In this document: positions 8,701 to 59,965 of the stretch, piece after piece | Numbering within the stretch: position 1 is the stretch's first letter | Layout: each line of letters opens with the position of its first letter | Virus record (IMG/VR): IMGVR_UViG_3300028591_000074 | Span: 32,001 to 96,000 of that record | DNA length: 64,000 nucleotides | Strand: one strand, 5' to 3' | DNA from: a virus | Taxonomy: Duplodnaviria; Caudoviricetes | Notes under the pieces: model-generated | Told to the model about the DNA's origin: nothing | What the model saw: only the letters and a program-made list of their open reading frames with translations | Databases searched by the model: none | Position numbers and translations under genes: made by a program

Positions 8701-8935
8701 AATTTTAAATTCTCCTGTATGTTAGAGTAAAATCTCCCACGACAATGTTATCTTGAGGTTTTATGTCAGCAACACTGTTCCGACAATAACAGAACTGTTT
8801 AATCACTGCCCTTAGAGCTTCAGGCTGGAAGTACACCAAAAGGTAACTATGTATTCTCAAGTAACGTAGTTATTAAGATGCATTTTAATATTTCATCTTA
8901 GCAACTCAGTCTGATTATCCTGTTCCGTCCGGAGA
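8701..8935 (-). ncRNA. omegaRNA (HEARO-like) of IscB element 1
   Basis: Upstream non-coding stretch with typical blocks CAGACTGAG...CTACGTT...GCTCT...ATTAAACAG...AAAACC...ACATTGTCG; boundaries approximate. Confidence 0.75.
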
Positions 8936-8998
8936 ACATATTATATACAAATATCTTAATGATATTCAACCGTACATAATATTATTGTGGATAATAAG

Positions 8999-31847: not shown

Positions 31848-33061
31848 TGAAATTTAACAGAATTATCAACAATCTATTAACTCAAGATTTATATAAATTT
31901 TCAATGACTCAGGCAATCTATCATCAGTTCCCGGCATATAAAACCACATGGACGTTTAAGTGCCGTAATACAGATGTAAAATTTACACCAGAAATGGTTG
32001 AAGAAATTAAGGAACAGATTCAGGCATATTGTCAGTTACAGTTTACAGAAGATGAATTGGGATATCTAGATAGTATACCTTGGCTGAAAGGAAGTTACAT
32101 TGATTTTCTTCGTTTGTGGAGACCAAGGTATGAAGATTTTGAAATTACTACAGATGCTGAATGCGGTCTTTCCATTGAAACAAGAGGTACATGGCTGAAC
32201 ACATCTATGTACGAAATCCCTACACTTGCTATTGTAAATGAAGTATATTTCCGGATGGCTTACAATTATGATGAACTTCTAGCAAGTTTTAAGGAACGAT
32301 TGGATGAAAAGTATAATAAGTTGCATAAGTCTATCTGGTATGCAGGTACCTTTTCGGAGTTTGGACTTCGGCGTAGACTTTCCGCAGAAGCACAGGAAAT
32401 GGCTGTTGATAAGTTTTCACATCTGAATGACACTATGCACGCATCTTCTAAGTTCATCGGAACTTCTAATGTATACCTTGCAAAGAAATTTGGTGTAAAG
32501 CCTGTAGGAACTATGGCACACGAATGGATCATGTGTACAGGTCAGGGAAATCACAAACATAATCCAGCATATTCTAACTGGTATGCACTGGATGCCTGGG
32601 TTAAGGAATATGGTGTGCTAAATGGTATTGCGCTTACGGATACTATCACAACAGATTGCTTCCTTAAGGATTTCCAGCTTACATATGCTACTTTATTTTC
32701 TGGTGTACGGCATGATTCTGGAGACCCATATGCTTGGGGTGATAAGATCATCAAGCATTATGAATCACTCGGTATTGATCCGAAGACTAAGACCCTTCTG
32801 TTCTCTGACAGTCTTGATTTTGAACGTGCAGACAAACTCTTCCGCTACTTTAATCCGAAAACAAATGTAGCATTCGGCATTGGAACATATCTTGCAAATG
32901 ATACGTGTGTTCCTCCGCTGAATATTGTTATGAAGACAACTCTGTGCAACGGACAGCCGATAGCTAAATTGTCCGATGTAGACGGAAAGGGTATGTGCAA
33001 AGATGCAGAATATGTAGATTATCTCAAAAGAACAATTCAGTGGCGTATTGATCATGAGTGA
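31847..33061 (+). CDS. pncB: Nicotinate phosphoribosyltransferase
   Basis: DLYKFSM, EFGLRRR, GTSN, GTMAHEW, GVRHDSGDP, FSDSLD, FGIGT, KLSD..GK. Confidence 0.95.
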   Translation: MKFNRIINNLLTQDLYKFSMTQAIYHQFPAYKTTWTFKCRNTDVKFTPEMVEEIKEQIQAYCQLQFTEDELGYLDSIPWLKGSYIDFLRLWRPRYEDFEITTDAECGLSIETRGTWLNTSMYEIPTLAIVNEVYFRMAYNYDELLASFKERLDEKYNKLHKSIWYAGTFSEFGLRRRLSAEAQEMAVDKFSHLNDTMHASSKFIGTSNVYLAKKFGVKPVGTMAHEWIMCTGQGNHKHNPAYSNWYALDAWVKEYGVLNGIALTDTITTDCFLKDFQLTYATLFSGVRHDSGDPYAWGDKIIKHYESLGIDPKTKTLLFSDSLDFERADKLFRYFNPKTNVAFGIGTYLANDTCVPPLNIVMKTTLCNGQPIAKLSDVDGKGMCKDAEYVDYLKRTIQWRIDHE

Positions 33062-50090: not shown

Positions 50091-51596
50091 TTACTCAACA
50101 GTTATAGCTTCATATCGTTCAGAGTTGATGACTTTCATCATCATCTCTACTGGTGTCATTCCGATACACTTCATCAGCTGCTTGAACGTTGTTGCTGAAC
50201 TACCAGATACGAGCTGAACACCTTTACGATCCTTATCAGCATGGAATACATCATGTCTTGAATTGACATTCCAGAATACTACGTTCGGGATCTTGTATCC
50301 TGCTTTCTTAAACTCGTGTCGCATCTCTTCGTAGAATGACCACTTATCCTTCCGATATCCCCAATCAGATGTTGCTTGATCAATCTCCATATCTGAAATC
50401 ACGATAATGGACTTAACCATATCCTCATCTGCAATATGATTCTTTACAGCAACATCAAGAATTGTCTGGAACGCAGATTCAAGATTTGTGGAACCACAGT
50501 AGCCATTACCAGATTTAACAACAGAACGGATTTTCTGAGCAAGTGTGTCACCCTTAATCTCAACGATATGAGATTCACTTGAGAATGGGATAAACATATT
50601 ATGGAAATCACCATGATTTCTTTCAGCGAAGTAAATTGCAAGTCCAATCGAATTCGCCATAGGAAGTCCATTATTGCATGTCATAGATCCGGAAAGATCA
50701 GATACAACAATTGCATTAGTGTTTTCTTCCACGTAATTCGGAAGCTGTCTCCACTGGGCTTCTACAGTATCATCATTACCTACAGAAATACCAAATCCCA
50801 TATGGCAGATTTTACGAATAAGATCATAAGGATATAGAGTAGATGAGTTGATCTTCTCTTCTCCAGTAAGTGCTTTTGCTGTGAACTCTTCGAATCTAAC
50901 TGTATCATGACGCGTAAAAGCATTTCTGTAGATCATCATGGCTCTGGATGGAACTGCTGAATACTTAATCTTATCCCATTCTCCGGCAGACATGAGACTT
51001 TCAACAACACCAATCTGCTTACGAAGTTTACGAAGAATTCTCTTGAAATTGTAAACAGGATATCCAAGTTTCTGTGCAGTAAGAATACCAAGTTTTCTTG
51101 TATTCTCCGATGATGCATCCGGTGTCTTGATCCATTTAGCGAGAAGAGATACTGCATTATCTTTATGAAGATTCTGTACATCCTCTTCAAACTGATCCTT
51201 CATCACTTTCCACATATCATCTTCAAGTGGTGTTCCAATAAGAGAATACAGATCATCATATCTTCCATATACGCCAATCAGATCAATGTTTGGTCTGATG
51301 GATTCCGGATGATATTTAGCAAGATACTTGATCAAGTCTCTGAAGACTTTACGTTCACCACAGCCTTCTCGGATGTCACGGCTATAGAAAAGTATCTTAG
51401 TTGCAAGCAACGGATCTTCTGCATATGCTTCTTCAAACAATCGCTGAACATCGACTTCATCTCTTGAACGAAGTGCTCCGATTGTTCCGAAAAGATCGAG
51501 ACATGCATCGCCGGAAGTATTCTTTGCTCTTGCACCATTCTCAGTAAAAGTTTTAGTAGCTTCGTTTCTCATTGCATCTGAAAGTTTCATTTGCAT
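50091..51596 (-). CDS. TROVE-like (DUF2828-type) plus vWA protein, Ro60-related
   Basis: TENGA...CLDLF...FYSRDIREGCGER, YGRYDDL, SLLAKW; vWA MIDAS DLSGSM, GSTNL, VISDMEID, VFWNV. Confidence 0.85.
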   Translation of the reverse strand: MQMKLSDAMRNEATKTFTENGARAKNTSGDACLDLFGTIGALRSRDEVDVQRLFEEAYAEDPLLATKILFYSRDIREGCGERKVFRDLIKYLAKYHPESIRPNIDLIGVYGRYDDLYSLIGTPLEDDMWKVMKDQFEEDVQNLHKDNAVSLLAKWIKTPDASSENTRKLGILTAQKLGYPVYNFKRILRKLRKQIGVVESLMSAGEWDKIKYSAVPSRAMMIYRNAFTRHDTVRFEEFTAKALTGEEKINSSTLYPYDLIRKICHMGFGISVGNDDTVEAQWRQLPNYVEENTNAIVVSDLSGSMTCNNGLPMANSIGLAIYFAERNHGDFHNMFIPFSSESHIVEIKGDTLAQKIRSVVKSGNGYCGSTNLESAFQTILDVAVKNHIADEDMVKSIIVISDMEIDQATSDWGYRKDKWSFYEEMRHEFKKAGYKIPNVVFWNVNSRHDVFHADKDRKGVQLVSGSSATTFKQLMKCIGMTPVEMMMKVINSERYEAITVE

Positions 51597-51709: not shown

Positions 51710-51823
51710 CGACAAGAACAGGAGTCGAACCTATACCACGCCTTGAACAGAGGAAAAAGAATCGCTGTTAACACCACAGGCATGATGTATTGAATTCGTG
51801 TGCTACCGTTACACCATCTTGTC
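51710..51823 (-). ncRNA. TROVE-associated RNA B (tRNA scaffold with insert)
   Basis: GACAAGA/TCTTGTC acceptor, D- and T-arms; insert with hairpin-TA-ACAGCGA and CCT-CTGTTCA-AGG. Confidence 0.7.
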
Positions 51824-51903: not shown

Positions 51904-52021
51904 TCGGCAAGGATGGACTTGAACCACCAACCCTCAGATCCCATTCAAAGTAAGTTGCGGTTTATATCCCAAACAGGATACAATAAAAAATTCTGATGCT
52001 CTACCGTTGAGCTACCTGCCG
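51904..52021 (-). ncRNA. TROVE-associated RNA D (tRNA scaffold with insert)
   Basis: CGGCAGG/CTTGCCG acceptor, GCTC-AACGGTA-GAGC D-arm, TCAGA/TCTGA stem enclosing hairpin-AA-ACCGCAA and CTTA-CTTTGAA-TGGG. Confidence 0.7.
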
Positions 52022-52122: not shown

Positions 52123-52240
52123 TGGACGGGACTGGATTCGAACCAGTGACCTAAGATTTTACAGATCTTCGCAAAAATTGGCTGTAAGAATCACATACAT
52201 GATTCATTTGCATTACGCTCTACCACTGAGCTACCCGCCC
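52123..52240 (-). ncRNA. TROVE-associated RNA F (tRNA scaffold with insert)
   Basis: GGGCGGG/CCCGTCC acceptor, canonical D- and T-arms; insert with hairpin-TT-ACAGCCA before AAGAT-CTGTAAA-ATCTT. Confidence 0.7.
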
Positions 52241-52798: not shown

Positions 52799-52884
52799 GA
52801 GCCAAAGGAGGGCTCGAACCTCCATCTCCTGTCTCATACTAACAGGTATTTTACCACACCAACAAGGCTTTAAACTACTAGGCT
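52799..52884 (-). ncRNA. Atypical tRNA / pseudo-tRNA (expanded D-loop, 9-nt anticodon loop)
   Basis: AGCCTAG/TTTGGCT acceptor, CCTGT-TAGTATGAG-ACAGG, GGAGG-TTCGAGC-CCTCC. Confidence 0.55.
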
Positions 52885-53120
52885 AAATGTGTTTCCTTGA
52901 ACCAACCTACTCAGGAAACGGTAGTAGCCCAAATCCGGTGCTACAAGTTCCATCTAATTTGCCCATGTACAATGCTTTCTTAATCACAGATCGTTGTGAT
53001 AAGGTTGATTGTACGCTCCTGTCGATGTAGGGCCGACACCCGCTATCGCTAACCGGGACAGCTACGGCTCCATATATGTATAGCAGTTCTGCTATCGGTA
53101 CCGTAACATATATGAAGACT

Positions 53121-53252
53121 GTCATCAACTGAAGATTCGAACTTCAGACAGCTACCATTTTGCAGATGGTATTATTGCATCGCAGAAGTCTGCAAACTTG
53201 ATGGTCATTCTCCATCTTGCTGCGAATACACTTGCCTCGTGCGTATTGATGA
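53121..53252 (-). ncRNA. tRNA-Cys(GCA)-like scaffold with about 60-nt structured insert after the D-arm
   Basis: TCATCAA/TTGATGA acceptor, ACCAT-CTGCAAA-ATGGT, TGAAG-TTCGAAT-CTTCA; the insert begins TTCGCAGCAA. Confidence 0.6.
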
Positions 53253-53393
53253 TAATACATGCCGCTGCTCCCTCAACCTAGCTTCATACTCTTGGGAGGT
53301 TGAACCCGCTAAGATTCTTCTTGATGTGCCGGAAGGGACTTAGCGTAGGATGGCATACCCTTCTATCATTATTCACATCAACAGAAGCATGAT

Positions 53394-53465
53394 CAGAGGT
53401 ACTAGGACTCGAACCTAGTCATTCGGGATCAAAACCCGATGCGCTACCGAATACGCTATACCCCT
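53394..53465 (-). tRNA. tRNA-Gln(UUG)
   Basis: TCGGG-TTTTGAT-CCCGA; CTAGG-TTCGAGT-CCTAG. Confidence 0.85.
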
Positions 53466-53500
53466 GTGTTACTTAACAATCTCATAACTGATGATAAGCG

Positions 53501-53564
53501 ATGCTAAGGTAGGACTCGAACCTACAACAACCCGTCGGCATTCTTCCAATTGAATTACTTAGCA
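53501..53564 (-). ncRNA. Mini tRNA-like RNA without an anticodon arm
   Basis: TGCTAAG/CTTAGCA acceptor, ATTC-AATTGGAA-GAAT D-arm, CCGACGG stub, GTAGG-TTCGAGT-CCTAC. Confidence 0.65.
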
Positions 53565-53789
53565 CCTGGCAACCTTTCTAAAACACTCAACCAACTTCTC
53601 TACTCCGTGTAGTTATCTCTGTTCCGCTCTTCCTCAGTAACAGCTTCAAGTAAATCGAATTCAAAACTCTATTTGCCTGTTGTAGTTTTGATAGGAACTA
53701 TAGATGATACACTTTTGCGGCCAAGCAAGAATATCAAGTTCCGTCTGCTTTCACCGCTTGGCGAAAGCGATATTTACCTTACATAACCA

Positions 53790-53818
53790 ATTATATACTA
53801 CAAAATCATAATTGTCAA
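53790..53818 (-). promoter_or_regulatory. Perfect sigma-A promoter driving the ncRNA/tRNA cluster
   Basis: TTGACA-N17-TATAAT on the minus strand. Confidence 0.75.
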
Positions 53819-54059
53819 TAACTTTTTGATAATTTTTTTAATATATTTATCTTAATGGTACGAATTGGATTCGAACCAATTCATTATGACCAATATTTTA
53901 TGGCGGTTTTAGGTAAGCCGCCAAACCGCACATAGCCACCAATGACCTGATTTTCAGCCAATAATGTAAATACTATATCTCAGGTCTGTCCGGTACAGTA
54001 ATTACACTACCAACTTACTCAGCATTGAGCCTGTGGTCCATTTGCTACATCGGCTCGCA

Positions 54060-54127
54060 TGGCAGGTAGGGAATCGAACCACTACGAAAGTTCCACACAA
54101 TAAGGAGGTTTGTGTTAACTTCTACCA
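54060..54127 (-). ncRNA. tRNA-like RNA with anti-Shine-Dalgarno loop
   Basis: TGGTAG/CTGCCA acceptor-like stem, GGTTCGATTCC T-loop, CACAA-ACCTCCTTA-TTGTG hairpin. Confidence 0.55.
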
Positions 54128-54169
54128 CCTTTGTTTGAGAAAGGACAATCTATATGAAATAGACAACAG

Positions 54170-54463
54170 TTATGAAACCCTGTCGATTTCATTCACAAGA
54201 ATGGCCATAGCCATCTTCAGGCGCACTTCATATTTATCTCTTAGTGCATCTAATTGTGCATTATACTCACTACGGACTACATCTACCAAATCTAATGCTT
54301 TCTGAACGTCTTTCGGAATTTCAACGTCTGGATTAAATCCATATTCCATACACTTATCACGAACAGATTCATTCGCATTTGCTAATACGGAATCAAACAT
54401 AGACATTAAAAATTCCTTCTTGTATTCAGATTCAATAGATTTATAGTCAGCCATAAGTACCAC
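54170..54463 (-). CDS. Hypothetical protein
   Basis: ORF track. Confidence 0.6.
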   Translation of the reverse strand: MVLMADYKSIESEYKKEFLMSMFDSVLANANESVRDKCMEYGFNPDVEIPKDVQKALDLVDVVRSEYNAQLDALRDKYEVRLKMAMAILVNEIDRVS

Positions 54464-54829
54464 CTATTTGTGTTTCTTTTTCTTTTTGGAATACTTACCA
54501 CTACTAATCCGATCTTTGTACCGAATATCTTTCTCATTCGGTGGATAATCATTTAAAAGTTCTTCAAACGATTTTCCATCACAAGATTCATATCGGTCAA
54601 TTTCAGATTGACGGATAGTAAGTTCCACAGATTTAACTTTTCCTGGAATAGCATATACTTCAATCTGTTCACCAACATTCATAAATTCTTCAATGTTTTG
54701 AACAAATGTATCAGATATATGTGAGATATGTAGCATCTGTGTAGATTCATCCTTAAATTGGATCACTGCACCAAATGGCTTTATCTCAGTAATTGTACCA
54801 ATATATTTCTCACCTATGTTTAAACGCAT
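54464..54829 (-). CDS. S1 RNA-binding domain protein (YugI/GSP13-like)
   Basis: G.ITEIKPFGA.I......MLHISHIS..FV..I...M.VGE; basic tail. Confidence 0.85.
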   Translation of the reverse strand: MRLNIGEKYIGTITEIKPFGAVIQFKDESTQMLHISHISDTFVQNIEEFMNVGEQIEVYAIPGKVKSVELTIRQSEIDRYESCDGKSFEELLNDYPPNEKDIRYKDRISSGKYSKKKKKHK

Positions 54830-54851
54830 TTTATTACTACACCCCCAGCAA

Positions 54852-55280
54852 CTACTCTTCTATAAGATCAAATATAGCCAAAAGTGCATCAGATGGAATC
54901 CCTGCGTTCATGATATCCTCTGCCTTGAACTTTGTGAGTTCGATATTTGCATCATCATTCAAAATAGAATTAACATCCTTTTGGAAAGATTCAACAGTAC
55001 CTTGAAACTTCTTTAAAGCTGCATCATAATCCTTGTCAGATTCAAAAGACTTTCTTTCTGGTTCGAAAATACCCATTGAACCATCTTCTCTCTTCTCTGC
55101 ATATTTCTGAAGAATCTCTTCACGCATCTGCTGAAAATTCTGTACTACAGGTTCAAACTGCTTGCGCATATTCAAAAACCGGAATTTAATCTTGACATCC
55201 ATATTAGTGTTATCAATCAGATTCTTCATTGTGTCATCATACTGCAAAATTTCATTAACCTTCATTTTCATTCTCCTCAT
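54852..55280 (-). CDS. Hypothetical protein
   Basis: ORF track. Confidence 0.65.
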   Translation of the reverse strand: MRRMKMKVNEILQYDDTMKNLIDNTNMDVKIKFRFLNMRKQFEPVVQNFQQMREEILQKYAEKREDGSMGIFEPERKSFESDKDYDAALKKFQGTVESFQKDVNSILNDDANIELTKFKAEDIMNAGIPSDALLAIFDLIEE

Positions 55281-55361
55281 ACATTAAAGTTTAGAACAAG
55301 TTACCATAAATCAATAGTAGCACATAGGTTCGAAAATGTCTATTGTAGGTTTTAGATAATT

Positions 55362-55769
55362 TTACAAATTGGATGGATCAAATGCAACTTCTGACCAATC
55401 AATTCCATATTTCTGAATAATAACCTTAAAATCTTCAAGATCATGTGGTCGAATTACAAACTTATCCTCTTCAATTCCAATATGAAGTAATTCGTGAAAA
55501 ATTAGAATCTTCAACTGTTCATCATTGAAATCAACAATATTTGGTTCAAAAATTGTAATTGTGAAGTCACATGGGATTCCCCATTTATATTTCTCAGGAA
55601 TTTTCTCACACTGACCAAATACAAGTTTCCCACCACTTTGCTTCGTATGTTCAGATGCAAGATATACAATCTGCACATCTGCAAGTTTAAGTTCCTGCAA
55701 TTCAGGCATTTCTTCAATCAGTTGTCTACCTATTTCTGTATATTCTTCCGATATTCGTCTCGAATCCAT
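55362..55769 (-). CDS. Putative phage metallopeptidase
   Basis: IFHELLHIG (HExxH) followed by PHDLEDF. Confidence 0.8.
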   Translation of the reverse strand: MDSRRISEEYTEIGRQLIEEMPELQELKLADVQIVYLASEHTKQSGGKLVFGQCEKIPEKYKWGIPCDFTITIFEPNIVDFNDEQLKILIFHELLHIGIEEDKFVIRPHDLEDFKVIIQKYGIDWSEVAFDPSNL

Positions 55770-58714: not shown

Positions 58715-59965
58715 TTATGTTACATTATCTAACCAATATATCTTTGAATATTTCCAAAGTAGCTTACACTTTTTAGCATTTACTTTCTTACAATGCTTTG
58801 TTAGACTTTGGAAATTCAATGCATTTAATTCTGGATAAAGAGCTGTTACATAACCTCTATGTGTTTCTCCATTCCTAAACGTATATTCAACTAAATCTCT
58901 ATGCTTTATTCCAAGTACATTATCTGTTTTTGCTTTACTCTGTCTACGCATAGGTTTAATAGTCCATTCTTTTACTTCCGTAGTATCCGGTTTCAAATCT
59001 GTAATACAAATTGCATCATTTGAATGAGATTTTTCTATATCCCAGTCAATACGTTTATTTGATGTATCACCACCAGAAGTTAAATGCAAGATGCCCAATT
59101 CTGATAATTGCTCTCTTAACCAATGTTTTCCTATCATTACATGACTTGCGTAGTTAAGGTTTTTGGTATCAGAAGAATTGAGCAGATCAAAATAGTGCTG
59201 CATATATTGTTCTTCTTTGCCTTCGGTCTTTTGATGGCATTTTTTGCAAAGACTTATCAAATTCCCTAACGTATTAGAGCCATTCCTTCTGCGTGGGTTT
59301 ATATGATGTACTTCTAATTTTGTATTTGTCTTTCCGCATTCCATACATTTACATCCATCACGCAGAATTACAGCTTTACGTATGTTCTCATCTAAACGAT
59401 TTGATTTTTGATACTGCCAATTATAAGGCTTATAGTCATCCGTTAAGGCCCTTATATCTATTGCAACATCTTCAAGCCAATAATTTGTAGTGTTAATCCA
59501 CTTGTTTAAGTGATATATTACTCGCATAGTGGCTTGTCGTTTTTGTAAGATACTTGGTGCTATTCTGCCTTTTCGCATAGATGAAGATCGGTTATTAAAC
59601 CTTGCTTTACGATGTCTCTTTTGTTGTCTGTGGTATCTGCGATAACTTTTACGAACATCCATAAGATACTTTATGTCATTACGCTGCTCTATTGTTCCTT
59701 TGAAAAGCACTTTATTTTTGGTCTGACATTTTTGTACAAGGGCAATACCCGTATGTAAACCTCCATCATCAATGCCACATCTTACTTCATCTTTACACAA
59801 TTCATCATCTGAAATTACTCGGTTAAGCTGTATCACCATTGGGTATTTTGCTACAAGTTTGGCTTTACCCTTGCGTATCATATACCACGCTTTTGTTTCT
59901 TTCGTTGGACTTAACGGTTTACCGTTAGCATCCAACACAAATGAATAATTTGTCATTTCTGACAC
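58715..59965 (-). CDS. iscB: IscB RNA-guided endonuclease (second, divergent copy)
   Basis: PLSP, GIDDG, RRYHR...[15 protein letters not shown]...HHI...CKKCH, SHSNDA. Confidence 0.92.

Follow-up and report, generated by a model that had tools for sequence, protein, structure and literature searches.

What is a short RNA that has the top half of a tRNA, no D arm and a loop matching the 3' tail of 16S rRNA, and is that match the point of the RNA? The question arises in the window, a 64,000-nt stretch (positions 32,001 to 96,000) of the virus record IMGVR_UViG_3300028591_000074, which as a whole comprises 253,527 nt at 36% GC. Among the public runs that contain the region, gut metagenomes of sheep, goat and cattle predominate, judged by the run records. 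A sequence-only reading had proposed that the loop masks Shine-Dalgarno (SD) sequences globally, or that it decoys a nuclease that cuts the 16S tail.

Architecture and setting of the tRNA-like unit

Folding of the minus strand reproduces the structure described in that reading: a canonical T-loop, with the D and anticodon region replaced by a hairpin that ends in a 9-nt loop. The tRNA-like shape is real; its limits, given earlier as 54060-54127, had to be widened to 54058-54128 (Table 1). The acceptor stem comprises 7 bp (54128-54122 with 54065-54059), and the CCA tail is not encoded. The hairpin consists of a 5-bp lower stem, a 1x2 internal loop, a 6-bp upper stem and the 9-nt loop; it stacks directly on the acceptor stem, and a 2-nt link then leads to the T stem. 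The stretch originally described folds at -17.6 kcal/mol (z -2.5, reached by 3 of 200 shuffles), the full 71-nt element has a z of -2.86, and all four homologs fold better than their shuffles, with z between -2.3 and -2.9. Neither ARAGORN nor Rfam makes a call on the 71-nt element.

Two other registers were rejected. A CCA at 54062-54060 lies inside the acceptor stem and is not a 3' tail, the register being set by pairing in the homologs; GUGGUAGA is not the D-loop of a longer cloverleaf, as the 3' acceptor strand finds no pairing partner upstream.

Table 1. Features of the locus; positions refer to the window unless a homologous locus is named
Feature	Position	Strand	Basis
D-armless tRNA-like unit, 71 nt, single copy in the 253-kb genome	54058..54128	-	genome covariance-model search
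Acceptor stem, 5' strand, GUGGUAG, invariant in four homologs	54122..54128	-	
Acceptor stem, 3' strand, three variants, pairing kept in all	54059..54065	-	homologs
Discriminator G	54058	-	
Hairpin in place of the D and anticodon arms	54088..54121	-	folds, homologs
9-nt loop ACCUCCUUA, 16S-tail match, variable among homologs	54101..54109	-	
T arm, 6-bp stem with one bulged U	54066..54085	-	
T-loop UUCGAUU	54072..54078	-	
Conserved structured RNA of ~155 nt, directly behind the unit, proposed processing product	53906..54057	-	
Copies of the ~155-nt RNA	L011 6391-6551; L014 6772-6924; L026 3249-3409; L007 6446-6598; L001 6475-6626		
Paralog of the ~155-nt RNA	L011 8047-8169; L014 8195-8325		E 2e-5; E 0.0016
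Long tRNA-like RNAs	L001 6322-6469; L007 6325-6440; L008 6324-6430; L026 3101-3245		
Leader antisense to RBS plus AUG (CAU...UCCUUUC)	54139..54156	-	between the 94-aa stop and the unit
94-aa gene, function unknown, upstream syntenic anchor	54170..54454	-	
Single S1-domain protein gene, 121 aa	54464..54829	-	PF00575, E 8e-8
DUF2828 gene (PHROG 850, RNA-binding)	50091..51596		

In a 340-nt context, the acceptor stem has a probability of 0.4-0.76 in the window and in locus L012, and of at most 0.04 in loci L014 and L011. Contigs from RNA runs X8 and X21 cover neighbouring parts of the island and none lies over 53912-54179; this gap counts neither way, because standard RNA-seq contigs cannot show a 71-nt RNA.

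At C1 16.3-20.1 kb, the phage genome has a tRNA cluster of the ordinary kind that is nearly complete. A second island, at 49-54 kb of the window, holds unusual tRNA-like RNAs around the DUF2828 gene, whose domain is often taken to be Ro/TROVE-like; a literature search found no description of DUF2828 in phages. The D-armless unit is the first of this island on the minus strand and lies about 40 nt past the stop of the 94-aa gene, which itself follows the S1-domain gene. Five other remodelled tRNA bodies lie near the DUF2828 gene on the minus strand (51710-51823, 51904-52021, 52123-52240, 52799-52884 and 53501-53564), three with 45-60-nt inserts in the anticodon region, one with an enlarged D-loop and one with an anticodon stub. 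Elsewhere in the window there is a HEARO RNA match (90 bits; 8727-8963, minus strand) and, separate from it, a gene for an RRXRR-HNH (IscB-like) protein at 58715-59965 (minus strand). A Ser-Tyr-Ser-His-Glu tRNA block, together with the genes preceding it, is present in slightly divergent copies at the two ends of the record (G000, C1 16354-16804 and 252961-253411), which points to a long but imperfect terminal repeat or to a mosaic of strains.

Conserved stems and a variable loop

Homologous loci were reached through relatives of the 94-aa and S1 proteins and then through synteny. Three distinct syntenic loci contain the same mini form, L012 (99% identical), L014 (81%) and L011 (67%). All 13 acceptor and T pairs are kept across the four homologs (52 of 52 cells paired, against 40-62% in slid controls), with two double, compensatory changes, both in the T arm, and three one-sided ones. 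The pair scores were reached by 29 of 500 shuffles, a figure that rests on four related rows of which two are 99% identical. Two DNA runs of close strains add a change at 54063 that turns an acceptor U-G pair into U-A. The hairpin stems are likewise paired in every homolog, with changed pairs, as counted on hand-set segments, the MAFFT alignment A6 misregistering the hairpin. Judged by this small sample of sequences, the element is a genuine tRNA-shaped structure under selection.

Exact patterns, degenerate patterns and protein queries against viral contigs gave no homologs, the matches being ordinary tRNA-His genes, chance matches in coding DNA or covariance-model failures; locus L096 (20.5 bits, no T-loop) was rejected. 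Genome contigs gave only ordinary tRNAs, mostly archaeal tRNA-His, and chance matches, and blastn against GenBank phages gave nothing. A metagenome scan added one locus, L027, with a tRNA-Ser in the slot of the unit; the tRNA-like unit is missing from the slot in L017, L021 and L027-L029. A literature search found no description of a D-armless tRNA-like element of this kind. The element is a D-armless tRNA-like unit, so far uncatalogued, that belongs to a small clade of phages.

Conservation does not extend to the loop. The 9-mer ACCUCCUUA occurs in this strain only; L012 and the close strains of DNA runs X2/X3 have ACCUCCUGA, L014 has (A)UCUCCUGC(U) and keeps only CUCCU, and L011 has GUCAUG, with the anti-SD match gone. 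The window and L014 agree at 6/9 loop positions, a lower identity than that of the whole element (81%) or of the downstream RNA (74%). Loop size ranges from 6 to 10 nt, on an interrupted stem of 9-11 bp. The match itself is common enough: ACCTCCT occurs five times in the window against 3.95 expected, this 7-mer turns up in 1.3% of 71-mer shuffles (a post hoc figure), and 8% of the shuffled versions of the 2.6-kb island contain some 8-mer of the 16S tail. Taken alone, the anti-SD match exceeds chance only modestly. Downstream of TAAGGAGGT on the plus strand come TTG-TGT-TAA (2 codons) and a GTG ORF of 8 codons, in agreement with the earlier judgement that this sequence is not a real RBS.

It is very unlikely that the loop serves as a mask for SD sequences or as a nuclease decoy, or more narrowly that the unit is a C-rich-loop sRNA with a small number of specific targets. 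The loop of the window is predicted to be open (unpaired probability 0.89-1.0) and its duplex with an SD sequence reaches about -13 kcal/mol, yet this weakens to -9 or -10 kcal/mol in L014, and in relatives a G in the loop can form a C-G pair and so make the loop narrower. RNAcofold net energies were left out, because the method cannot model binding into a closed loop. CUCCU is kept in three of the four homolog types (window, L012, L014), although the probability of keeping five given bases at 74-81% identity is 0.2-0.3, and the loop is absent from L011 and from the long forms described below. Nucleases that cut the anti-SD exist, such as MazF-mt3 with its site UCCUU (PMC5408214), but UCCUU is private to this strain. 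An S1-domain gene lies two genes upstream of the unit; S1-bearing huge phages, however, rarely have SDs (PMC7162821), whereas this phage, with its single-S1-domain protein, has kept canonical SD sites. A canonical 5-mer SD precedes 91 of its 173 long ORFs, against 11 for internal-ATG controls. Global SD masking by the loop is unlikely, because the phage's own genes depend on SD sites and a mask would block them.

Comparison of the homologs does not support a function for the anti-SD loop. A loop that is not conserved was among the outcomes by which the sequence-only reading would be refuted, and the homologs largely show it; a weaker form of the idea is conceivable because CUCCU survives in most homolog types. 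The loops of L012, L014, L011 and X2/X3 share U-C-N-U-G, and the core may be better written in this way, as an anticodon-like loop with CCU or CAU. The loop of the window, ACCUCCUUA, can also be read as an anticodon-like CU-CCU-NA, and CU-CCU would be complementary to AGGAG by nature. From these sequences, likeness to the anti-SD is probably not the point of the RNA.

A conserved RNA behind the unit and other occupants of the slot

The ~155-nt RNA begins 1-5 nt after the discriminator of the tRNA-like unit. It has covarying helices (18 of 34 predicted pairs) and the invariant motifs CAAAU, AGUARGU, UGAA and AUGUGYGGU, has no Rfam match, and is a candidate new family. A tRNA-like unit precedes it in every locus that has it, and the five loci that lack the unit also lack this RNA. 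In L011 and L014, its paralog comes immediately after another, different tRNA-like unit that is also non-decoding, and before a tRNA-Gln. That second unit, near-identical in the two loci (L011 7953-8033, L014 8103-8183), carries an insert in its D-loop, and its anticodon arm is short.

In L001, L007, L008 and L026, the slot is occupied by tRNA-like RNAs of 108-150 nt whose middles are mutually unrelated. Their interiors are hypervariable and multi-hairpin, some with extra T-arm-like hairpins, and the forms of L001, L007 and L008 fold with a 7+6 top half like that of the mini form. These long RNAs were missed by ARAGORN, and by Rfam at the gathering threshold.

Further observations concern the region behind the ~155-nt RNA. 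A lone T-arm-like hairpin follows it at 53862-53885 (minus strand), and 34 nt at 53867-53902 are missing from a close strain (run X2). A ROOL RNA (RF03087, ~280 bits) lies about 310-370 nt downstream of the homologous unit in L011 (6761-7352) and L014 (7080-7670); no ROOL match was found in the window.

Possible roles of the unit

Among known RNAs, D-armless mitochondrial tRNA-Ser also lacks the D arm. It decodes, and has a normal anticodon arm and a D-replacement loop; unlike it, the phage unit has a hairpin that stacks straight on the acceptor stem and ends in a loop of 6-10 nt. The C-rich-loop sRNAs RsaE and RoxS expose, like the unit, a C-rich loop complementary to the SD. The seed is their most conserved part, whereas the loop is the least conserved part of the phage unit, for which Rfam gave no match and neither a promoter nor a terminator of its own was found. 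With the bacterial Y RNA YrlA (RF02553) the unit shares tRNA mimicry with a T-like loop and a DUF2828 RNA-binding gene nearby; it differs in its open-ended acceptor stem and has no evident Ro-binding stem, and RF02553 gave no match at 54058-54128 down to E 5. Canonical and phage tRNAs (RF00005; the arrays of huge phages, PMC7162821) share with it the 7-bp acceptor stem and discriminator, a T-loop that fits UUCRANY (UUCGAUU or UUCGAGU) and the position in a phage tRNA island. Unlike them, the unit has no D arm, its hairpin starting right after position 7, has a 6-bp T stem, lacks the 5-bp anticodon stem with a 7-nt loop, and escapes ARAGORN and the Rfam tRNA model. By these features, the unit falls outside the tRNAs, the Y RNAs and the C-rich-seed sRNAs.

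The closest parallels are mascRNA/menRNA and plant mitochondrial t-elements (PMC4919922), which are likewise short, non-decoding, without an encoded CCA and embedded in a longer transcript. They have an intact acceptor stem and T arm, as does the phage unit, which also shares with such processing elements a non-decoding interior and a place at the boundary of another conserved RNA. They are eukaryotic and their cleavage has been shown, whereas cleavage of the phage unit is inferred; the phage unit also differs in lacking a D hairpin and in having one long hairpin and a 7+6 top half. By this analogy, it most plausibly works as punctuation in the manner of mascRNA or a t-element.

The explanation that we prefer, tentatively and at somewhat less than an even chance, is that this remodelled, non-decoding tRNA body punctuates a phage ncRNA island as a signal for RNase P and RNase Z. 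mascRNA plays such a processing role for MALAT1. Because no terminator-like site was found within 53000-55500, the unit would be co-transcribed with the S1 operon. Host RNase P would cut its 5' end at 54128 and RNase Z would cut after the discriminator at 54058, and the two cuts would trim the 3' end of the mRNA and release the ~155-nt RNA with a defined 5' end. The conserved part is a coaxial helix of acceptor and T stems (7+6 bp) that carries a normal T-loop and has neither a D arm nor a CCA; the middle hairpin would be an exchangeable insert. The anti-SD likeness would come mostly from a CU-CCU-type anticodon-like loop complementary to AGGAG, with one strain-private G>U change lengthening the 16S-tail match. 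A full ordinary tRNA set elsewhere in the phage makes the unit dispensable for decoding. Bacterial RNase P accepts tRNAs that are extensively truncated and also cuts tRNA-like substrates that are not tRNAs, and RNase P and RNase Z together make mascRNA and menRNA (PMC4919922); precursors without a CCA are substrates of RNase Z (PMC4810234).

The punctuation reading has its weak points. RNase Z grips the D/T elbow (PMC4810234), and its cleavage is the weak step because a D-armless RNA is without that elbow. Adjacency to the ~155-nt RNA is weak evidence, because a tRNA island puts nearly everything beside tRNA-like units. The predicted loss of the acceptor stem in the long-context folds of L011 and L014 is a further caveat, and punctuation alone leaves the conserved hairpin stems and an invariant UGUGGA unaccounted for.

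Those conserved hairpin stems, together with the U-C-N-U-G common to the loops, would suit a released stable tRNA mimic, acting as a decoy for host anticodon nucleases or as a ligand of the phage DUF2828 protein, with an anticodon-like loop U-CCU-G in most strains and U-CAU-G in L011. The many other non-decoding tRNA bodies of the island and the nearby DUF2828 gene are consistent with this, but the loop, at 6-10 nt, is unlike a 7-nt anticodon loop, no DUF2828 gene was called within the 6 kb fetched downstream in L011 and L014, and the host nuclease is only putative. Such a mimic is rather unlikely; it would be compatible with the processing model, adding a job for the released piece. If the unit and the ~155-nt RNA were instead never separated, the unit would be the uncleaved 5' domain of one RNA of ~225 nt (54128-53906), its top half protecting or folding the RNA. 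The two are never apart at the slot, no promoter-like site lies between them, and in-context folds suggest pairings between the two parts; these cross-pairings differ among homologs, however, and unrelated tRNA-like bodies have been swapped in at the 5' side while the 3' RNA stayed constant, which leaves this alternative unlikely.

That the unit is a decaying pseudogene of a tRNA, perhaps tRNA-His, with no function today is very improbable. The absence of the unit from the slot in five loci would suit decay, the invariant UGUGGA and the stem strand after it resemble a His anticodon loop, and the pattern search gave three tRNA-His genes; but no stem pair is broken at 67-81% identity, and His ancestry found no support among unselected tRNAs, where His did not rank first.

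If the punctuation reading is right, large gut phages would mark the cuts that set uncatalogued RNAs free with pared-down tRNA bodies that tRNA finders miss, and the locus would point to the new ~155-nt family. It would also offer a natural test of the minimal size of bacterial RNase P and RNase Z substrates. Host shut-off would carry more weight, but comparison of the homologs speaks against it.

The leader between the 94-aa gene and the unit invites another view. Its UGUCCUUUC part is invariant in the four mini-form homologs, and its UCCUUUC matches the 16S end of Firmicutes. All eight loci with a tRNA-like unit have a leader with this anti-RBS and anti-AUG property; the loci listed for the leader slot are L001, L007, L008, L011, L012, L014, L017 and L026. 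There are at least three unrelated sequence versions, among them those of L001/L007/L008, of L026 (weaker, with a purine run) and of L017. Of the 267 other stop codons in the genome, just 4 are followed by a loose form of the pattern, which was noticed post hoc. The ORFs antisense to the leader have 2-43 codons (2 in the window) and no common peptide. No target was found in the phage genome, where the best other match is 13 nt; the complement of the L011/L014 leader gave eight matches at gene starts, all in unrelated genes, and no target recurred among the 301 genomes searched, from the class of a Christensenellaceae MAG.

The leader is the basis of a reading that is quite unlikely, if conceivable: the cassette would make anti-initiation RNAs, with an anti-AUG and anti-SD tail on the upstream transcript and an exchangeable seed loop on the mini-tRNA. 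The RNase P cut would then leave an upstream transcript that ends like the 16S 3' end, and the released mini-tRNA would show its seed loop, anti-SD in most strains and anti-AUG in L011. Were this so, leader, mini-tRNA and the neighbouring S1-domain protein could tune the translation of chosen host or phage mRNAs. About 50-70 nt ahead of the main tRNA cluster (C1 20147) there is an element similar to the leader.
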